64,000 nucleotides of DNA. Source: Escherichia phage vB-Eco-KMB39. Shown piece after piece: positions 9,061 to 15,875 of this stretch (positions are counted from its first letter, which is position 1; each line of letters starts with the position of its first letter). The notes beneath the pieces are model-generated. The model was not told the origin of the DNA. It saw only the letters and a program-made list of their open reading frames with translations, and ran no database searches. The DNA lies in sequence record OR539219.1. One strand, given 5' to 3'. The position numbers and the translations under genes were made by a program.

Positions 9061-10065
9061 TTAGCTTACCAATTCAATCCAAGCCGGACGAAGTACATCT
9101 TGTACCATTTTAACTAATTCCTTTTTAATCAAAGAAGGATTATCCGCTTGAGTTAGAGTAATACCTTCACGAGAAGTTTCTTCCAAAATATCTTGAACAG
9201 TTAGTCCCATCACTTTTCCAAAATCCTTCGGACCAATTTCGCCAATTTTAGAAATAACGTTATTTACTCGGTTCAGTGTAACGTAACAAGCTAAAATTCC
9301 CAGCAATTTATTATCAGCTTCTGACAGTTCAACTTTAGCTTTAATAGGCTTATCAGACTTTTTCTTTTCACTAAATTTAGAGTTCTTGCATTTAATCGCT
9401 ACGCGATTGCCATTAGGCATCCAAGAAGGATAACAAGGTTTCAATACATATCCTTCAGCAGTAAATACTTCGCCTTTTGCTTCGGCATTCCAAACGCATT
9501 TATTTGCATCAACTAATCCAGCATGGTCTACTGTAAAATTATAATCTTGAACGACAGAATCTAAATCGTTTGGCAATTTAATAAGCTCTTCAAATTTACC
9601 GCGACCCAAAAGTGGAGCCATTTTAAATTTAAATGTATTACAGAATGATTCCATCATATAATCATCGACATAAGTCACATCACCACTTTCGGTAGTAACA
9701 ATAATGTCAAATACATAAAAATCTTTATCACCATAATCGACATTCTTCTGAATGCCAGGTCCAGCAAATTCGCCAAAGACTTGATAAGATACAACTGCCG
9801 AAGTTTCCATAATATCTTGTACTGCTTTAATGGAATCAGCGTAATTTTTTAGAATAATTTCATACCCAAAGAAATCTTCAGCAGGAAGAATAGGACCAGT
9901 ACGTTTAGCACAAGTTGCTTTATCGCGTTCAATAATCAGTGAGAAATTTGTGCCATGAATCTTTTCACGAGCTACCCATTCGCCGCCAGTCAATCCTAAA
10001 CTGTAAAGTTTTTCAATGAATTTAGAATTGTAATGATTTTCAAGACTGCTATACTTTTTAAACAT
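9061..10065 (-). CDS. rnlB: RNA ligase 2
   Basis: 334 aa; nucleotidyltransferase lysine motif KIHGTN ([11 protein letters not shown]); convergent with gene 24 across bidirectional terminator. Confidence 0.85.
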
Positions 10066-10074
10066 AATTAATCC

Positions 10075-10353
10075 TCAAAATGTAATTTCTAACCAATCAC
10101 CATCACGCTGGTCACTATTGACTTTAAAGCTAAATCCTTCTTTTCTCAGCCAATCACCAATTTCTTCAGTAATCAATTTATCGCGAGCAGTGCAATAATA
10201 ACTAAAATATGTTTTACCTTGTTCAGCTGCTTTATTAGCAAGTTCCGAAAAATCTTTAATAAAACACTCTAGCTTAAACTGTTTGCTTTTAAGTGCTTTT
10301 TCGCGTAATTGATTAGCAAAAGATTCATTTTCATAAAGATCATACTGTTCCAT
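10075..10353 (-). CDS. hypothetical protein (24.2-like)
   Basis: 92-aa ORF translationally coupled upstream of rnlB. Confidence 0.55.
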   Translation of the reverse strand: MEQYDLYENESFANQLREKALKSKQFKLECFIKDFSELANKAAEQGKTYFSYYCTARDKLITEEIGDWLRKEGFSFKVNSDQRDGDWLEITF

Positions 10354-10555
10354 TTTTCACCTTCTTATTAATATGTCTTTTTCTATAGACAACTTTTTCT
10401 CGAGTCTCAAATTTATTCTTAGCAGTCATAGCTCGAGCCCATAATACAGCCACTTCCTTTGCCTGTAAGTTCAATTCACGAGCAATTTCAATGAATGACT
10501 TTCCAGACTCATGGAGTGTAAACACCACAACCTCAGTTCTCATAATCAATCTCAT
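10340..10555 (-). CDS. hypothetical small protein with helix-turn-helix-like segment (24.3-like)
   Basis: 71-aa ORF; SFIEIARELNLQAKEV resembles an HTH; TATAAT-like -10 upstream. Confidence 0.5.
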   Translation of the reverse strand: MRLIMRTEVVVFTLHESGKSFIEIARELNLQAKEVAVLWARAMTAKNKFETREKVVYRKRHINKKVKNGTV

Positions 10556-10624
10556 GTTATCGAGTTGGTGCCATTATATACATCGTTTTCTGATTGTGTT
10601 TTGTGTGCTTTCAAAATGAAGAAA

Positions 10625-10638
10625 GGGGCCGAAGCCCC
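10625..10638 (-). terminator. UUCG hairpin after hoc
   Basis: - strand GGGGC-TTCG-GCCCC 5 bp after hoc stop. Confidence 0.55.
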
Positions 10639-10643
10639 TGAGA

Positions 10644-12062
10644 TTATGGATAGGTATAGATGATACCAGTTTCTAAAGCAGTTTTATGAATGATGTATCC
10701 ATTACGCGATTCTTGAACATCAACTTCTGGATAGTCTTTCATCATCTTCTGAAGAGTGTAACGATGCAAGTAGTACTTACTATCTGGATCGTCAGTTTTC
10801 CAATCTTTACCTTCTTCAGTCATTTTTTGGATTTCATCCATAACCCACCAACCGCACCAGATATAAGCTGAAGTACGATGTGGAAGAGGATGAACATAAG
10901 GCAATTCACCTTCTGGTTCCGGAGCAACTTTATCAGTTACCTGAACTTGACCAGTCGCTTTAACTGTTTTACTATCATAGTCAGTTGCTGTAACGACAGC
11001 AGTAACTTCAATAGTTTGGCTTCCAATAGATGAGGTATCAACAGTATATACGTTAGTTGACCCTTCTACAGGAGAAGAATCTTTCTTCCATGAATACGTA
11101 ATTTGTGCTTCTTCCGGAGCATCCGTAACATTAGCGGTAAATGTAGCCGAAGCATCTTGCTGAACATTAATAGAAGGAGGAGTCAATGTAACCTGTGGAT
11201 TCATTGTCTTCTTATTAACCGTTAATGATACTTCATTAGAAGTAACTGTTTTTGCGTCGTAATCCGTTGCTGTTACTTGGGCTATGCATTTAATTTTTTT
11301 AACTCCAGCCACAGTTGGAGTATAGTTAAATGTAGAGTTAGTTTCTCCATCAACTTGTGAATCATCTACATACCACTGATACGTGGCAGACGCTCCATCA
11401 GGTTGAGAAGCTAAGGCAGCAGTAAATTGAACCGGGGTTCCAATTACTCCAGCAGCAGGACTATCAGGAGTTACTGCCAAGGTAGTTGTCTGCGTCTTTT
11501 TATTAACAGTCAGTGACACTTCATTAGAAGTAACTTCCTTTGTATCATAATCTGCCGCGGTTACTTGAGCTACACACTTAATTGTTTTAACTCCGCTTGT
11601 GGAAGGAGTGTAATTAAATGTAGCAGAAGTTGCTTCGCCCACAGGAGAACCGTCAACGTACCATTGATATGTAGCAGTTGCGCCCGATGGCTGCGAAGCT
11701 AAAGCAGCAGTAAATTCAACAGCTGTTCCAATTACTCCTTCTGGAGGACTATTAGGAGTTACAGCTAAAGTAGTTGTCTGTGTCTTATTTTGAACTGTGA
11801 TAGTTGTAGTAGCTTCTGCTGTTTCAGCATCAGTATCTGGAACTGGGTTTGTTGCAACTACTTTAATAGTTTTTTGACCGGCAGGTCCTTTTAATACATA
11901 ACTAAAAGTTGCAGATGTTTCTTCCTGTGGAACATCATCTACAGTCCAAGCATATGTAATAGGTCCATCTCCAGTTTGACCACTGGGTGTAGCAGTAAAC
12001 TGCTGAGTCTGATCTATAACTCCAGTAGGTGTTTTAGGAGTTATATCAACTGTAAAAGCCAT
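10644..12062 (-). CDS. hoc: highly immunogenic outer capsid protein Hoc with four Ig-like domains
   Basis: 472 aa; N-terminal tandem Ig-like domains and conserved C-terminal capsid-binding region (...WCGWWVMDEIQKM...); terminator hairpin after stop. Confidence 0.85.
   Translation of the reverse strand: MAFTVDITPKTPTGVIDQTQQFTATPSGQTGDGPITYAWTVDDVPQEETSATFSYVLKGPAGQKTIKVVATNPVPDTDAETAEATTTITVQNKTQTTTLAVTPNSPPEGVIGTAVEFTAALASQPSGATATYQWYVDGSPVGEATSATFNYTPSTSGVKTIKCVAQVTAADYDTKEVTSNEVSLTVNKKTQTTTLAVTPDSPAAGVIGTPVQFTAALASQPDGASATYQWYVDDSQVDGETNSTFNYTPTVAGVKKIKCIAQVTATDYDAKTVTSNEVSLTVNKKTMNPQVTLTPPSINVQQDASATFTANVTDAPEEAQITYSWKKDSSPVEGSTNVYTVDTSSIGSQTIEVTAVVTATDYDSKTVKATGQVQVTDKVAPEPEGELPYVHPLPHRTSAYIWCGWWVMDEIQKMTEEGKDWKTDDPDSKYYLHRYTLQKMMKDYPEVDVQESRNGYIIHKTALETGIIYTYP
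11211..11786 (-). repeat. tandem duplication (2 x 288 bp) encoding two near-identical Ig-like domains within hoc
   Basis: Protein residues 93-188 and 189-284 are about 80% identical (KTQTTTLAVTP...SLTVNK twice); DNA copies visibly similar. Confidence 0.8.
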
Positions 12063-12071
12063 AAGTTATCC

Positions 12072-12752
12072 TTATTTTAATGTTACGAAAGAAGAGTTGC
12101 GTGTTTCACGAATTAAAACTGATCCGTCACGGTTAATGTAGTAAATTAAGCTAAATAAAGTTTGGTGTGCCGACGCGTGTTCAAAACTAGTTGGGTGAGA
12201 TTTCCAATCCGGAGTTTCAGCGATCCATTGATAAATCCACCAAGGAACCGTGCAAAATCCTGGATTTTTTCCAATCAGCTGAAGATTCGGACTAAAGTTT
12301 TCCGGAAGAGTAAATACAGACGGCTTTTCAGATTCAATAATCTCAGCTACAGCCTGTTCGAATTTTTCTTCAACAAAAGGAGTATCTTCAATCAAAACGT
12401 CAGTATTTTCGGGAATTTTATCCGTTTCTACTACTTCAATTTTAATGTCAGATTTAACCGGAGAATCAATCAGAAGTGCTGCTTCTGGATTGACTTCTTC
12501 ATCGTCATATTTTAACCCCTCTGCGGCATCAGCAGCATTGATTAAGTCTTTAATAGATAACCCATCAGTCTCTGGCATAGGTTCACTAGCGAGCTTCTGG
12601 AGGGCTTCTTCAATATCAATAACGATATTATCAAAAGATTTATTCTTTTTGACCTTTATACCAAACTGTTCAGCATATTCAGCTAATTTAGCTTTAGCTT
12701 CTTTATTATCATCAAGAGCCTTCAGCTCTGCAATATAATCTTTATCTATCAT
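12072..12752 (-). CDS. inh: inhibitor of prohead protease Inh
   Basis: 226 aa ORF immediately upstream of hoc; synteny with T4 inh. Confidence 0.65.
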   Translation of the reverse strand: MIDKDYIAELKALDDNKEAKAKLAEYAEQFGIKVKKNKSFDNIVIDIEEALQKLASEPMPETDGLSIKDLINAADAAEGLKYDDEEVNPEAALLIDSPVKSDIKIEVVETDKIPENTDVLIEDTPFVEEKFEQAVAEIIESEKPSVFTLPENFSPNLQLIGKNPGFCTVPWWIYQWIAETPDWKSHPTSFEHASAHQTLFSLIYYINRDGSVLIRETRNSSFVTLK

Positions 12753-12765
12753 AATATTTCCTCAG

Positions 12766-12773
12766 TATAAATA
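12766..12773 (+). promoter_or_regulatory. late promoter core TATAAATA (seg-like gene / uvsW)
   Basis: Exact match 28 bp upstream of ATG 12802. Confidence 0.55.
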
Positions 12774-12801
12774 TAGATATATTTATTACTCGGAAAATAG
12801 T

Positions 12802-13419
12802 ATGTACCACTTTGTATATGAAACAACAAATCTAATAAACGGTAAAAAGTATATAGGAAAACACTCTACTGATGACTTGAATGATGGTTACCTTGGTTCC
12901 GGTAAGGCAATTCAGCAGGCTATAAAGAAATATGGTGAAAACAATTTCTCTAGAACAATACTAAAAGAGTTTAAAACTTCCGAAGAAGCGTACATGTATG
13001 AAGAAGAAATTATAACTCCTGAAATAATAAAAAGCAAAAATTATTATAATATGAAACCTGGTGGAATTGGTGGAATTGTTATGACTACAGAGGTTATAGC
13101 AAAGATGAAAGAATCTTCCGCTAAGAGATTTGAAAACTCACCGGGCACGGTATTAGGTACAACTTGTTACACCAATGGAACTAAAAATATTTTTATTAAA
13201 CCTGGAGAACTTGTTCCAGAAGGATTTGTAAAAGGGATGGTTCATCCTAATAGAAAGTCCAGAAAAGGATGTAAAGTCAAACCGACTACCACAGGAACTT
13301 TTTGGGTCAATAATGGCGCAATAAATAAATTAATACAACCAGACGGTATTATTCCCGACGGATTTATTAAAGGTCGTCTCATGAAAAGAGATTCTAAAGG
13401 CAAATTTAGTAAGGCATAA
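12802..13419 (+). CDS. segE: GIY-YIG homing endonuclease (SegE-like)
   Basis: 205 aa; N-terminal GIY-YIG module YHFVYETTNLINGKKYIGKHS; sits between hoc/inh block and uvsW as segE does in T4. Confidence 0.65.
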   Translation: MYHFVYETTNLINGKKYIGKHSTDDLNDGYLGSGKAIQQAIKKYGENNFSRTILKEFKTSEEAYMYEEEIITPEIIKSKNYYNMKPGGIGGIVMTTEVIAKMKESSAKRFENSPGTVLGTTCYTNGTKNIFIKPGELVPEGFVKGMVHPNRKSRKGCKVKPTTTGTFWVNNGAINKLIQPDGIIPDGFIKGRLMKRDSKGKFSKA

Positions 13420-13421
13420 TT

Positions 13422-14930
13422 ATGGATATTAAAGTACATTTTCACGACTTCAGTCATGTACGCATCGATTGTGAAGAGAGCACGTTCCACGAATTAAGAG
13501 ATTTCTTTTCGTTTGAGGCAGATGGATATAGGTTTAATCCTCGCTTCAGATATGGCAACTGGGATGGACGAATCCGTCTTTTAGATTATAATCGTCTTCT
13601 TCCGTTCGGCTTAGTCGGGCAAATTAAAAAGTTCTGCGATAACTTTGGCTATAAAGCCTGGATTGACCCTCAAATTAATGAAAAAGAAGAATTATCAAGA
13701 AAAGATTTTGATGAATGGCTTTCTAAATTAGAAATCTATTCAGGAAATAAAAGAATTGAACCACACTGGTATCAAAAAGATGCAGTGTTCGAAGGATTAG
13801 TTAATCGTCGCAGAATTCTTAATCTTCCAACATCCGCAGGTAAATCTTTAATTCAAGCTTTGCTTGCACGTTATTATTTGGAAAATTATGAAGGTAAAAT
13901 TCTTATCATTGTTCCAACAACTGCTCTGACAACTCAGATGGCTGATGACTTTGTTGACTATCGTTTATTCAGTCATGCAATGATAAAGAAAATCGGCGGC
14001 GGAGCATCAAAAGATGATAAATATAAAAATGATGCACCAGTCGTCGTTGGTACATGGCAAACTGTAGTTAAACAACCGAAAGAATGGTTCTCACAGTTTG
14101 GAATGATGATGAATGATGAATGTCATCTTGCTACAGGAAAAAGTATTTCATCTATCATATCAGGATTAAATAACTGTATGTTTAAATTTGGTCTATCAGG
14201 TTCATTACGTGATGGCAAAGCCAATATCATGCAGTATGTTGGAATGTTTGGTGAAATATTTAAACCAGTAACGACTTCTAAATTAATGGAAGATGGACAA
14301 GTAACTGAGCTAAAAATTAATAGTATTTTTCTTCGCTATCCCGATGAGTTCACTACTAAATTAAAGGGAAAAACTTACCAAGAAGAAATAAAAATTATTA
14401 CTGGACTCAGTAAAAGAAATAAATGGATTGCTAAATTAGCTATTAAACTTGCACAAAAAGATGAAAACGCTTTTGTCATGTTTAAGCATGTATCACATGG
14501 TAAAGCTATTTTCGATTTAATTAAAAATGAATACGATAAAGTTTATTACGTATCAGGGGAAGTTGATACCGAAACACGCAACGTAATGAAAACCCTAGCT
14601 GAAAACGGTAAAGGAATAATTATAGTAGCTAGTTATGGTGTATTTTCTACTGGTATTTCAGTTAAAAATCTGCATCACGTTGTTTTAGCGCACGGTGTTA
14701 AATCAAAAATCATTGTATTACAAACAATCGGTCGTGTATTACGTAAGCATGGTTCTAAGACAATAGCAACAGTCTGGGATCTTATAGATGACGCGGGCGT
14801 AGTTTCTAAATCAAAAACATCTTCTAAAAAATACTCGCATTTAAACTATCTTTTAAAACATGGACTTGATCGTATTCAGCGTTATGCTGATGAAAAGTTT
14901 AATTATGTGATGAAAGAGGTTAAACTTTGA
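13422..14930 (+). CDS. uvsW: UvsW RNA-DNA / DNA helicase
   Basis: 502 aa; Walker A LPTSAGKS and helicase motifs; MDIKVHFHDFSHVRIDCEE... Confidence 0.9.
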   Translation: MDIKVHFHDFSHVRIDCEESTFHELRDFFSFEADGYRFNPRFRYGNWDGRIRLLDYNRLLPFGLVGQIKKFCDNFGYKAWIDPQINEKEELSRKDFDEWLSKLEIYSGNKRIEPHWYQKDAVFEGLVNRRRILNLPTSAGKSLIQALLARYYLENYEGKILIIVPTTALTTQMADDFVDYRLFSHAMIKKIGGGASKDDKYKNDAPVVVGTWQTVVKQPKEWFSQFGMMMNDECHLATGKSISSIISGLNNCMFKFGLSGSLRDGKANIMQYVGMFGEIFKPVTTSKLMEDGQVTELKINSIFLRYPDEFTTKLKGKTYQEEIKIITGLSKRNKWIAKLAIKLAQKDENAFVMFKHVSHGKAIFDLIKNEYDKVYYVSGEVDTETRNVMKTLAENGKGIIIVASYGVFSTGISVKNLHHVVLAHGVKSKIIVLQTIGRVLRKHGSKTIATVWDLIDDAGVVSKSKTSSKKYSHLNYLLKHGLDRIQRYADEKFNYVMKEVKL

Positions 14931-15619
14931 ATTATAAATTAATATATGATAATTTAATTAATAGAGCCCAGAATCGGGCTCGCCTTAATGGATACACTGA
15001 AACACATCATATAATTCCTAGATGTATGGGTGGTACAAATGATAAGTGTAATTTAGTAGAACTAACGGCTGAAGAACATTTTATAGCCCATAAACTTTTA
15101 GCTAAAATTCATCCAAACCATTACGGTATAATTAAAGCTGTTATATGTATGGGGATGAATTCAAATACTCATGAAAGACACGTCAATAAATCTTACGCAT
15201 GGGAACGTCGTAAAATGGCAGAACTTCAATCCGGCGAAGGTAATCCATTTTACGGAAAACACCATACGGAAGAACATAAACAATATATGTCAAAACTCAT
15301 GAAAAGTCGTCCAATTACATGGGGAAATAAAATTAGTAAAACTAAAAGAATGAACCCAACGAAATGGACTGAAGAAGCTAAAAGATTACATTCAATCAAT
15401 CAATCGGGTAAAAATAACGGCATGTATGGAAGGAAACATTCCGCTAAATCTATTCAGAAAATTAAAGATAACATGCCAGATAATTCAGGAGCTAATAACC
15501 CAGCTGCTAAACCTATAGAAGTAAATGGTGTTAAGTATAAATGTATGAAAGATGCTTCTAAAGCTACTGGATTATCAATGTACAAACTAAGAATACTTAG
15601 AAAAACAGTTAATTTATAA
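14927..15619 (+). CDS. HNH homing endonuclease (Mob-like), TTG-initiated
   Basis: 230 aa; N-terminus near-identical to the mobE product at 42495-43226 (MNY.IY.DLI.RAQ...ETHHI.P.CMGG); starts at TTG 14927 overlapping uvsW TGA; GAGG 7 nt upstream. Confidence 0.75.
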   Translation: MNYKLIYDNLINRAQNRARLNGYTETHHIIPRCMGGTNDKCNLVELTAEEHFIAHKLLAKIHPNHYGIIKAVICMGMNSNTHERHVNKSYAWERRKMAELQSGEGNPFYGKHHTEEHKQYMSKLMKSRPITWGNKISKTKRMNPTKWTEEAKRLHSINQSGKNNGMYGRKHSAKSIQKIKDNMPDNSGANNPAAKPIEVNGVKYKCMKDASKATGLSMYKLRILRKTVNL

Positions 15620-15631
15620 GGGCTTCGGCCC
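15620..15631 (+). terminator. UUCG hairpin between Mob-like gene and downstream small ORF
   Basis: GGGC-TTCG-GCCC immediately before GGAG RBS; may be RNA stabiliser rather than terminator. Confidence 0.4.
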
Positions 15632-15632
15632 T

Positions 15633-15875
15633 TTGGAGAAAAAGATGTTACTAGAATTTAAACAATTTCTTTATGAAGCTTCTATTGATGAATTTATGGG
15701 TAAAATTGCCTCTTGTCAAACATTAGAAGGTTTAGAAGAACTTGAAGCTTATTATAAGAAAAGAGTTAAAGAAACTGAATTAAAAGATACTGATGACATC
15801 TCTGTGAGAGATGCTTTGGCAGGAAAAAGAGCTGAATTAGAAGATTCAGATGATGAAGTAGAAGAAAGCTTTTAA
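15633..15875 (+). CDS. small acidic protein (UvsW.1-like)
   Basis: 80 aa ORF with GGAG RBS after UUCG hairpin; position downstream of uvsW. Confidence 0.55.
   Translation: MEKKMLLEFKQFLYEASIDEFMGKIASCQTLEGLEELEAYYKKRVKETELKDTDDISVRDALAGKRAELEDSDDEVEESF

Follow-up and report, generated by a model that had tools for sequence, protein, structure and literature searches.

The hoc gene of Escherichia phage vB-Eco-KMB39 (sequence record OR539219.1) raises the question of why its product has 472 residues when Hoc of T4 has 376, and where in the history of the gene this difference belongs. It was addressed in a stretch of 64,000 nucleotides, here called the window. The features that the analysis needs are the following.

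10644..12062, minus strand: hoc coding sequence, 472 aa plus stop (open reading frame list, PDB and PHROG matches, T4 synteny)
11787..12062, minus strand: Ig-like domain 1, residues 1-92; aligns with T4 Hoc 1-92; beta strands, pLDDT 79-93
11499..11786, minus strand: repeat copy A, Ig-like domain 2a, residues 93-188; the unit that T4 is without
11211..11498, minus strand: repeat copy B, Ig-like domain 2b, residues 189-284; ortholog of T4 domain 2
10923..11210, minus strand: Ig-like domain 3, residues 285-380; ortholog of T4 domain 3 (alignment, Pfam, model)
10647..10922, minus strand: C-terminal capsid-binding domain, residues 381-472; aligned to T4 Hoc 285-376
12069..12073, minus strand: AAGGA, resembling a Shine-Dalgarno sequence; it overlaps the stop codon of inh and ends 6 nt ahead of the ATG (read from the sequence)
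10624..10639, minus strand: terminator-like GC-rich hairpin AGGGGCTTCGGCCCCT with a T-rich run, 4 nt past the hoc stop (pattern scan)
12072-12752: inh, next to hoc with a 9-nt spacer
9061-10065: rnlB

The hoc locus and its internal repeat

The identity of the gene was established from its neighbours and its product. The gene order rnlB-24.2-24.3-hoc-inh-segE-uvsW is that of T4 (NC_000866) in both order and orientation; hoc lies between 24.3 and inh, with all three on one strand, and the spacer of 9 nt between inh and hoc has the same length in T4. The protein encoded by 10644-12062 matched 5vf3_Z (T4 Hoc) and four other PDB entries at E=1e-214, as well as PHROG 1149 'Hoc-like head decoration' at E=7e-141; PHROG 21694 was also matched. 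Because of the T4 synteny and the matches to 5vf3_Z and PHROG 1149, the reading frame is hoc. The first-pass annotation had likewise called it a Hoc of 472 residues, and the open reading frame list, the PDB and PHROG matches and the synteny agree on this. At the spot that corresponds to the hairpin behind hoc, a terminator is annotated in the record of phage vB_EcoM_NBG2.

Two further features were observed beyond inh. Between inh and uvsW, a GIY-YIG reading frame of 205 aa (12802-13419, plus strand) with a SegE_GIY-YIG Pfam match corresponds in position and length to T4 segE; this gene is missing from the matching spacer in AV111, JQD51, UGKSEcP2 and RB69, where inh is directly followed by the helicase gene. 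The uvsW region (13422-15875, plus strand) appears to be split by an inserted endonuclease-like gene; in T4 (NC_000866.4) uvsW is a single gene of 587 aa. The frame 13422-14930 (502 aa) is identical at 490 of 502 positions to T4 UvsW residues 1-502, and the frame 15633-15875 (80 aa) at 80 of 80 to residues 508-587. Between them, the frame 14927-15619 (230 aa as listed) contains NUMOD3 motifs (Pfam E=7.6e-14), which are typical of homing endonucleases.

The length of T4 Hoc, which the first-pass annotation had given as roughly 376 aa, is 376 aa (1131 nt), and its alignment to the 472-residue protein left a single gap of 96 aa; T4 Hoc is shorter and has one Ig domain fewer. The annotation had placed a direct repeat at residues 93-188 and 189-284, corresponding to 11211-11786. 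These coordinates map exactly. The repeat itself stands, and its identity, given there as about 80%, is lower: in register the two copies are identical at 74 of 96 residues (77%) and 215 of 288 nucleotides (74.7%). The 73 differing nucleotides are distributed over the three codon positions as 16/12/45. When Hoc was compared with itself, an offset of 96 aa gave 68 of 90 identities in the best window and any other offset at most 28 of 90, showing that the 288-bp periodicity which a self-alignment was to reveal is present and that this offset dominates. A maximum of 21 identities per 96 residues was reached in 20,000 shuffles, against the 74 observed. A direct-repeat search returned two families with a start-to-start spacing of 288 nt, which span 11206-11510 and 11494-11798. 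Tandem Repeats Finder reported no array in 10000-12800 even at a minimum score of 30, presumably since the copies are too diverged for the score threshold.

The copies are adjacent and in frame, and their period of 288 nt or 96 aa equals one domain plus its linker, as is found for a tandem domain duplication. The other Ig domains are 29-43% identical, both to one another and to A and B, compared with 77% between A and B; the whole Ig string is therefore an older family of paralogs. T4 domain 2 shares 90% nucleotide identity with copy B, at a dS of 0.27 that resembles the remainder of the gene, and 77% with copy A (dS 0.86). Since it is closer to B on both measures, T4 domain 2 is orthologous to copy B, and the unit missing in T4 is copy A.

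Domain architecture of the 472-residue Hoc

The N-terminal part of the protein was analysed with Pfam, AlphaFold2 and Foldseek, and all three found a string of Ig-like beta-sandwiches of the PKD/I-set type. PKD or Ig Pfam matches were obtained in both repeat copies, with PKD, BiPBP_C and Ig_2 in copy A and PKD at residues 195-253 in copy B. Domain 3 matched Ig_3 and I-set at residues 289-374. The AlphaFold2 model, built with 26 homologs, had a mean pLDDT of 84 and showed four all-beta domains followed by an alpha/beta C-terminal domain. Over residues 1-376, the means of ten-residue blocks were mostly 84-96, falling to 79 at residues 1-10 and 71-80. The strand pattern is the same in copy A (pLDDT 82-95) and copy B (about 94-96). 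The C-terminal domain was weakly modelled (pLDDT 40-68), and with a pTM of 0.54 the geometry between the domains is unreliable. The best Foldseek matches in the PDB, at a probability of 1.00, were Dscam1 Ig1-4, ICAM-5 D1-D4 and NCAM Ig1-3; their TM-scores were low because the inter-domain angles differ. The Pfam matches, the model and the Ig-string matches together support an architecture of four Ig-like domains plus a capsid anchor. The four Ig-like domains and capsid-binding C-terminus proposed in the first-pass annotation thus reappear as four beta domains in the model and as four-Ig strings in Foldseek.

The anchor was recognised by its sequence. The published capsid-binding domain of T4 Hoc comprises residues 281-376, and between T4 residues 285-376 and the C-terminal domain encoded here only one of 92 aligned residues differs. 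The gp23-contact residues named in PMC10385173 are all conserved at the T4 number plus 96, namely Y389, H391, H395, R396, Y400, W402, W405, W406, D409, Q450 and E451-S452-R453-N454-G455. An intact capsid-binding domain with its gp23 contacts is therefore found at the C-terminus.

Age of the duplication, the length ladder and its history

The age of the repeat was estimated from the substitutions between the copies. A and B differ with a dS of 1.27, which is essentially saturated, a dN of 0.146 and a dN/dS of 0.12, and both copies are under purifying selection. The orthologous parts of the window and T4 genes differ with a dS of 0.27-0.36. Since the dS between A and B is far higher, the duplication predates the split of the window allele from T4; it is old, and much older than that split. 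We then compared the units of 29 four-Ig proteins (28 database representatives and the window's own). Between proteins, the mean identity was 0.88 for unit 1 against unit 1 and also 0.88 for unit 2 against unit 2. Unit 1 against unit 2 gave 0.79 within one protein and 0.80 between proteins. This comparison of within- and between-protein identity in the 29 proteins gave no signal that the copies undergo concerted evolution or gene conversion, and the unit identities point to position-specific orthology. Neither a recent origin nor homogenisation was found, as the dS is 1.27, the identities within and between proteins are 0.79 and 0.80, and the longest exact in-register match between A and B is a run of 18 nt.

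To see how widespread the arrangement is, the hoc gene was compared by megablast with 50,697 phage records, and 678 matched, mostly from Tequatrovirus phages of Escherichia and Shigella. From the 678, an even-step sample of 60 records was drawn and classed by how far the match spans, since coverage reaches 100% for three-Ig genes too, through two overlapping pieces. The classes were as follows.

Four Ig (span 1419/1416 nt): 20 of 60 records
Three Ig (span about 1131 nt): 30 of 60 records
Five Ig (partial match at two places per record): 2 of 60 records (UGKSEcP2 was checked, 570 aa; the other is assumed from its like pattern)
Two Ig (span 843/849 nt): 2 of 60 records
Divergent (match to the C-terminal domain only or another partial match): 6 of 60 records

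The duplication is a common allele class in about one third of the related phage records and is not peculiar to vB-Eco-KMB39. Four-Ig genes with 90-97% nucleotide identity occur in OES_C-1/2/3, DCP2, ECO07P4/5, PP01, ime09, the slur phages (slur02/04), pSs-1 and Sf23. Among the best 120 cluster representatives listed from the protein collection, 81 have 376 aa, 29 have 472 aa and 8 have 568/570 aa; an identical 472-residue protein is P0009 of this collection. The natural lengths of Hoc form a ladder of 280/282, 376, 472 and 568/570 aa. In the same collection, the Hoc clusters P0006, P0017, P0023 and P0028 carry Escherichia coli or Shigella as source and names such as 'PKD domain-containing protein' and 'endonuclease [Shigella sonnei]'; phage contigs in bacterial assemblies, together with one misannotation, probably account for them.

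In IMG/VR, 23 loci have the C-terminal domain of Hoc, and the lengths of their products are 179, about 280, about 375, about 472 and 907 aa. Another, distinct Hoc lineage was observed there (L010-L018), with the N-terminus MAYTV..IAPLAATAVIG and a C-terminal domain that is 80-86% identical, and it has a ladder of its own with 282, 373-377 and 471-472 aa. The locus L019 encodes a Hoc-like protein of 907 aa and L025 one of 179 aa. Because of this second ladder and the 907- and 179-residue forms, changes in the copy number of the Ig module are recurrent across T4-like phages.

The four-Ig allele is already sequenced in hundreds of public records, and it is an ordinary one whose biology is not new. 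That the number of Hoc domains varies has been stated before (PMC11150434, PMC10385173, PMC11853027), and Hoc has been described as a conserved anchor with a variable Ig-like string that reaches up to 10 Ig domains in Muldoon (PMC10385173). A literature search brought up no paper in which the tandem copies of domain 2 in the 472-residue Hoc are explicitly set out; what it returned was general variability of the domain number and the two-Ig variant of PNJ-9.

Traces of recombination were then sought in the shorter and longer genes. In the Hoc of JQD51 (280 aa; L003:1501-2343), domain 1 is joined straight to domain 3 at TITV|NKKTMNPQ, with the crossover in the homologous linkers. The Hoc of AV111 (282 aa; L002:1501-2349) consists of domain 1 and a D2/D3 chimera that starts as a B-type domain 2 and switches at the shared TATDYD|SKT. 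AV111 itself is classified as a Mosigvirus, yet its hoc is of the Tequatrovirus type. The 570-residue Hoc of UGKSEcP2 has three middle units. Judged at the 22 sites that separate the window's A and B, middle units in other phages form a patchwork mosaic; of 79 three-Ig sequences, T4 included, 57 have a sole middle unit that resembles A more closely and 17 one that resembles B more closely. Such units fit frequent recombination among alleles and among units, and their strong mosaicism blurs a simple history of duplication. Chimeras with A on the left and B on the right, as a single-crossover origin of three-Ig genes would leave them, were also sought at the 22 diagnostic sites and were not the dominant pattern; a patchwork was found instead.

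Taken together, these results are best explained as a whole by a five-domain Hoc (D1-D2a-D2b-D3-C-terminal) with an old duplication, which forms one rung of a ladder made by recombination; we give this reading a probability of about 0.9. In this reading, one module of 288 nt, a domain and its linker, was duplicated in frame long ago, and both copies were retained by purifying selection. The arrangement is one rung of the two-to-five-Ig ladder of the Tequatrovirus-type hoc, and this ladder was made through in-register unequal homologous recombination between paralogous domain modules. The first-pass annotation had also proposed that the repeat is a substrate for unequal recombination. Over evolutionary time this agrees with the ladder from two to five Ig domains and with the two in-register deletion junctions. 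For the present day the proposal has to be weakened: we infer that homologous slippage in vB-Eco-KMB39 is rare or inefficient, and copy-number variants in a clonal stock are expected to be rare because the longest perfect in-register match has 18 nt.

Within the ladder, the direction of change can be read in more than one way. The four-Ig gene could be the older state of the hoc lineage, with the T4-type three-Ig genes and the two-Ig genes as deletion derivatives produced by unequal crossing over, and the three-Ig form of T4 may equally be such a derivative. The excess of the A-B dS over that between window and T4, which puts the duplication before the split of the alleles, speaks for this order. 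So do the sole middle units of the three-Ig genes, which resemble A or B depending on the cluster and are often mosaics, and the natural occurrence of in-register deletion products in AV111 and JQD51. It is opposed by the A-left/B-right chimeras, which do not dominate among the three-Ig units, by the three-Ig class being the commoner one (30 against 20 in the sample of 60), and by the Hoc of RB69, in which one domain (D2) is co-orthologous to A and B with 52% and 57% identity. The single co-ortholog in RB69 fits a duplication within the Tequatrovirus-type lineage. On balance, a four-Ig ancestor is a tentative reading to which we give slightly less than even chances.

A different origin would be an unequal recombination between diverged A-type and B-type three-Ig alleles during a mixed infection. 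The divergence of A from B would then reflect that of the alleles and not the age of a duplication. T4-like phages recombine heavily, the units are mosaic, and A-like as well as B-like sole units do occur among the three-Ig genes, all of which such an event would draw on. It would need, however, a crossover between the ends of D1 (TITVQNKT) and D2 (LTVNKKT), where the homology of the linkers is very short. In addition, among 30 four-Ig proteins (29 representatives and the window's own), 29 have an A-like unit 1 and 25 have a B-like unit 2, a pattern that suggests a single origin followed by spread, although it discriminates only weakly from the old duplication favoured above. We regard the mixed-infection origin as unlikely. 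A recent duplication private to vB-Eco-KMB39 or an assembly artefact, for which nothing speaks beyond the existence of a tandem repeat, is ruled out for practical purposes by the A-B divergence (73 of 288 nt, saturated at synonymous sites) and by the many independent genomes, since the 1419-nt gene is present at 92-97% in dozens of independently sequenced phages (PP01, ime09, slur, pSs-1) and P0009 has the identical protein.

Consequences for the fibre and comparison with known Hoc proteins

Hoc of the T4 type is present in 155 copies per capsid and is dispensable for growth. It is the main display scaffold of T4 and the capsid adhesin in the bacteriophage-adherence-to-mucus model. The hoc allele that a therapeutic or display phage carries therefore affects the fibre length, the antigenicity and possibly the mucin binding. 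According to the published T4 work, each gp23* hexamer binds a single Hoc monomer at its centre, and the monomer protrudes as a flexible fibre; with four domains, this fibre is 180 A long (PMC10385173, PMC9958956). By analogy, the C-terminal domain encoded here would anchor one Hoc monomer at each gp23* hexamer centre, and the extra module would lengthen the fibre by about 45 A, about one Ig domain, to roughly 225 A if the 180 A scales.

The duplication would also add a second copy of the domain-2 surface, including an S-L-T motif. The Ig domains of Hoc bind fucosylated glycans of MUC2 at a site that varies by phage (PMC11150434, PMC11853027); the domain reported to contact mucin is D1 in PNJ-6, D2 in PNJ-9 and D3 in T4. 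In PNJ-9 Hoc the contact to MUC2 fucose was reported for S183-L184-T185 (PMC11853027). The SLT motif is found in both copies of the window's Hoc, at residues 183-185 and 279-281. Because the reported mucin-contact sites differ between phages, a functional gain from a doubled domain 2, such as twice the avidity, is speculative. It is conceivable, but in our judgement rather improbable, that the middle Ig module is a copy-number-variable mosaic cassette (0-3 copies), kept polymorphic as the fibre length and the mix of A and B tune reach and glycan specificity to mucosal and bacterial surfaces, with A and B diverged in their ligand preference.

The practical value of the result lies in annotation, as hoc encodes a four-Ig protein here. 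In several public records the same gene goes by 'PKD domain protein', 'capsid and scaffold protein' or 'hypothetical protein'. When residues are compared with T4, the T4 numbers shift by +96 after residue 92.

Among the closest known systems are the 472-residue Hoc proteins of many other Tequatrovirus phages, which share the length, the D1-A-B-D3-C-terminal architecture and 90-97% nucleotide identity over the whole gene, and from which the window's Hoc is set apart only by point differences and by patches of mosaicism inside the units. With T4 Hoc (PDB 5VF3, 8T1X and others) it shares the gene position and the orthologous D1 (85%), D3 (87%) and C-terminal domain (95%, all at the nucleotide level), but T4 has one middle Ig domain and three in total, whereas two middle and four total domains are found here.

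RB69 (Mosigvirus) has a Hoc of 471 aa that also consists of four Ig-like domains, in shared synteny and with a C-terminal domain of 98% amino acid identity. Unlike the anchor, its Ig domains are 31-63% identical to those of the window. Both A and B have their co-ortholog in D2 of RB69, whose D3 is a paralog at a greater distance, and the four-domain state of RB69 therefore has a separate history. At the nucleotide level, the C-terminal domains (10647-10922 and RB69 L005:2501-2773) are 96% identical and the Ig part is too diverged for megablast; the identity of the anchors reflects either an extreme constraint on this module or an exchange between the genera.

Shorter and longer forms complete the comparison. 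The two-Ig 'variant Hoc' of phage PNJ-9, which has been characterised (PMC11853027), and the Hoc proteins of AV111 (282 aa) and JQD51 (280 aa) belong to the same protein family with the same module size, and their domain number changes in register; modules were lost there, whereas the window allele has one more than T4. The five-Ig Hoc of UGKSEcP1/P2 (568/570 aa) and that of the Serratia phage Muldoon (10 Ig; PMC10385173) stand on further rungs of this ladder and likewise combine a C-terminal anchor with a variable Ig string, but they have more copies, and Muldoon is only distantly related.
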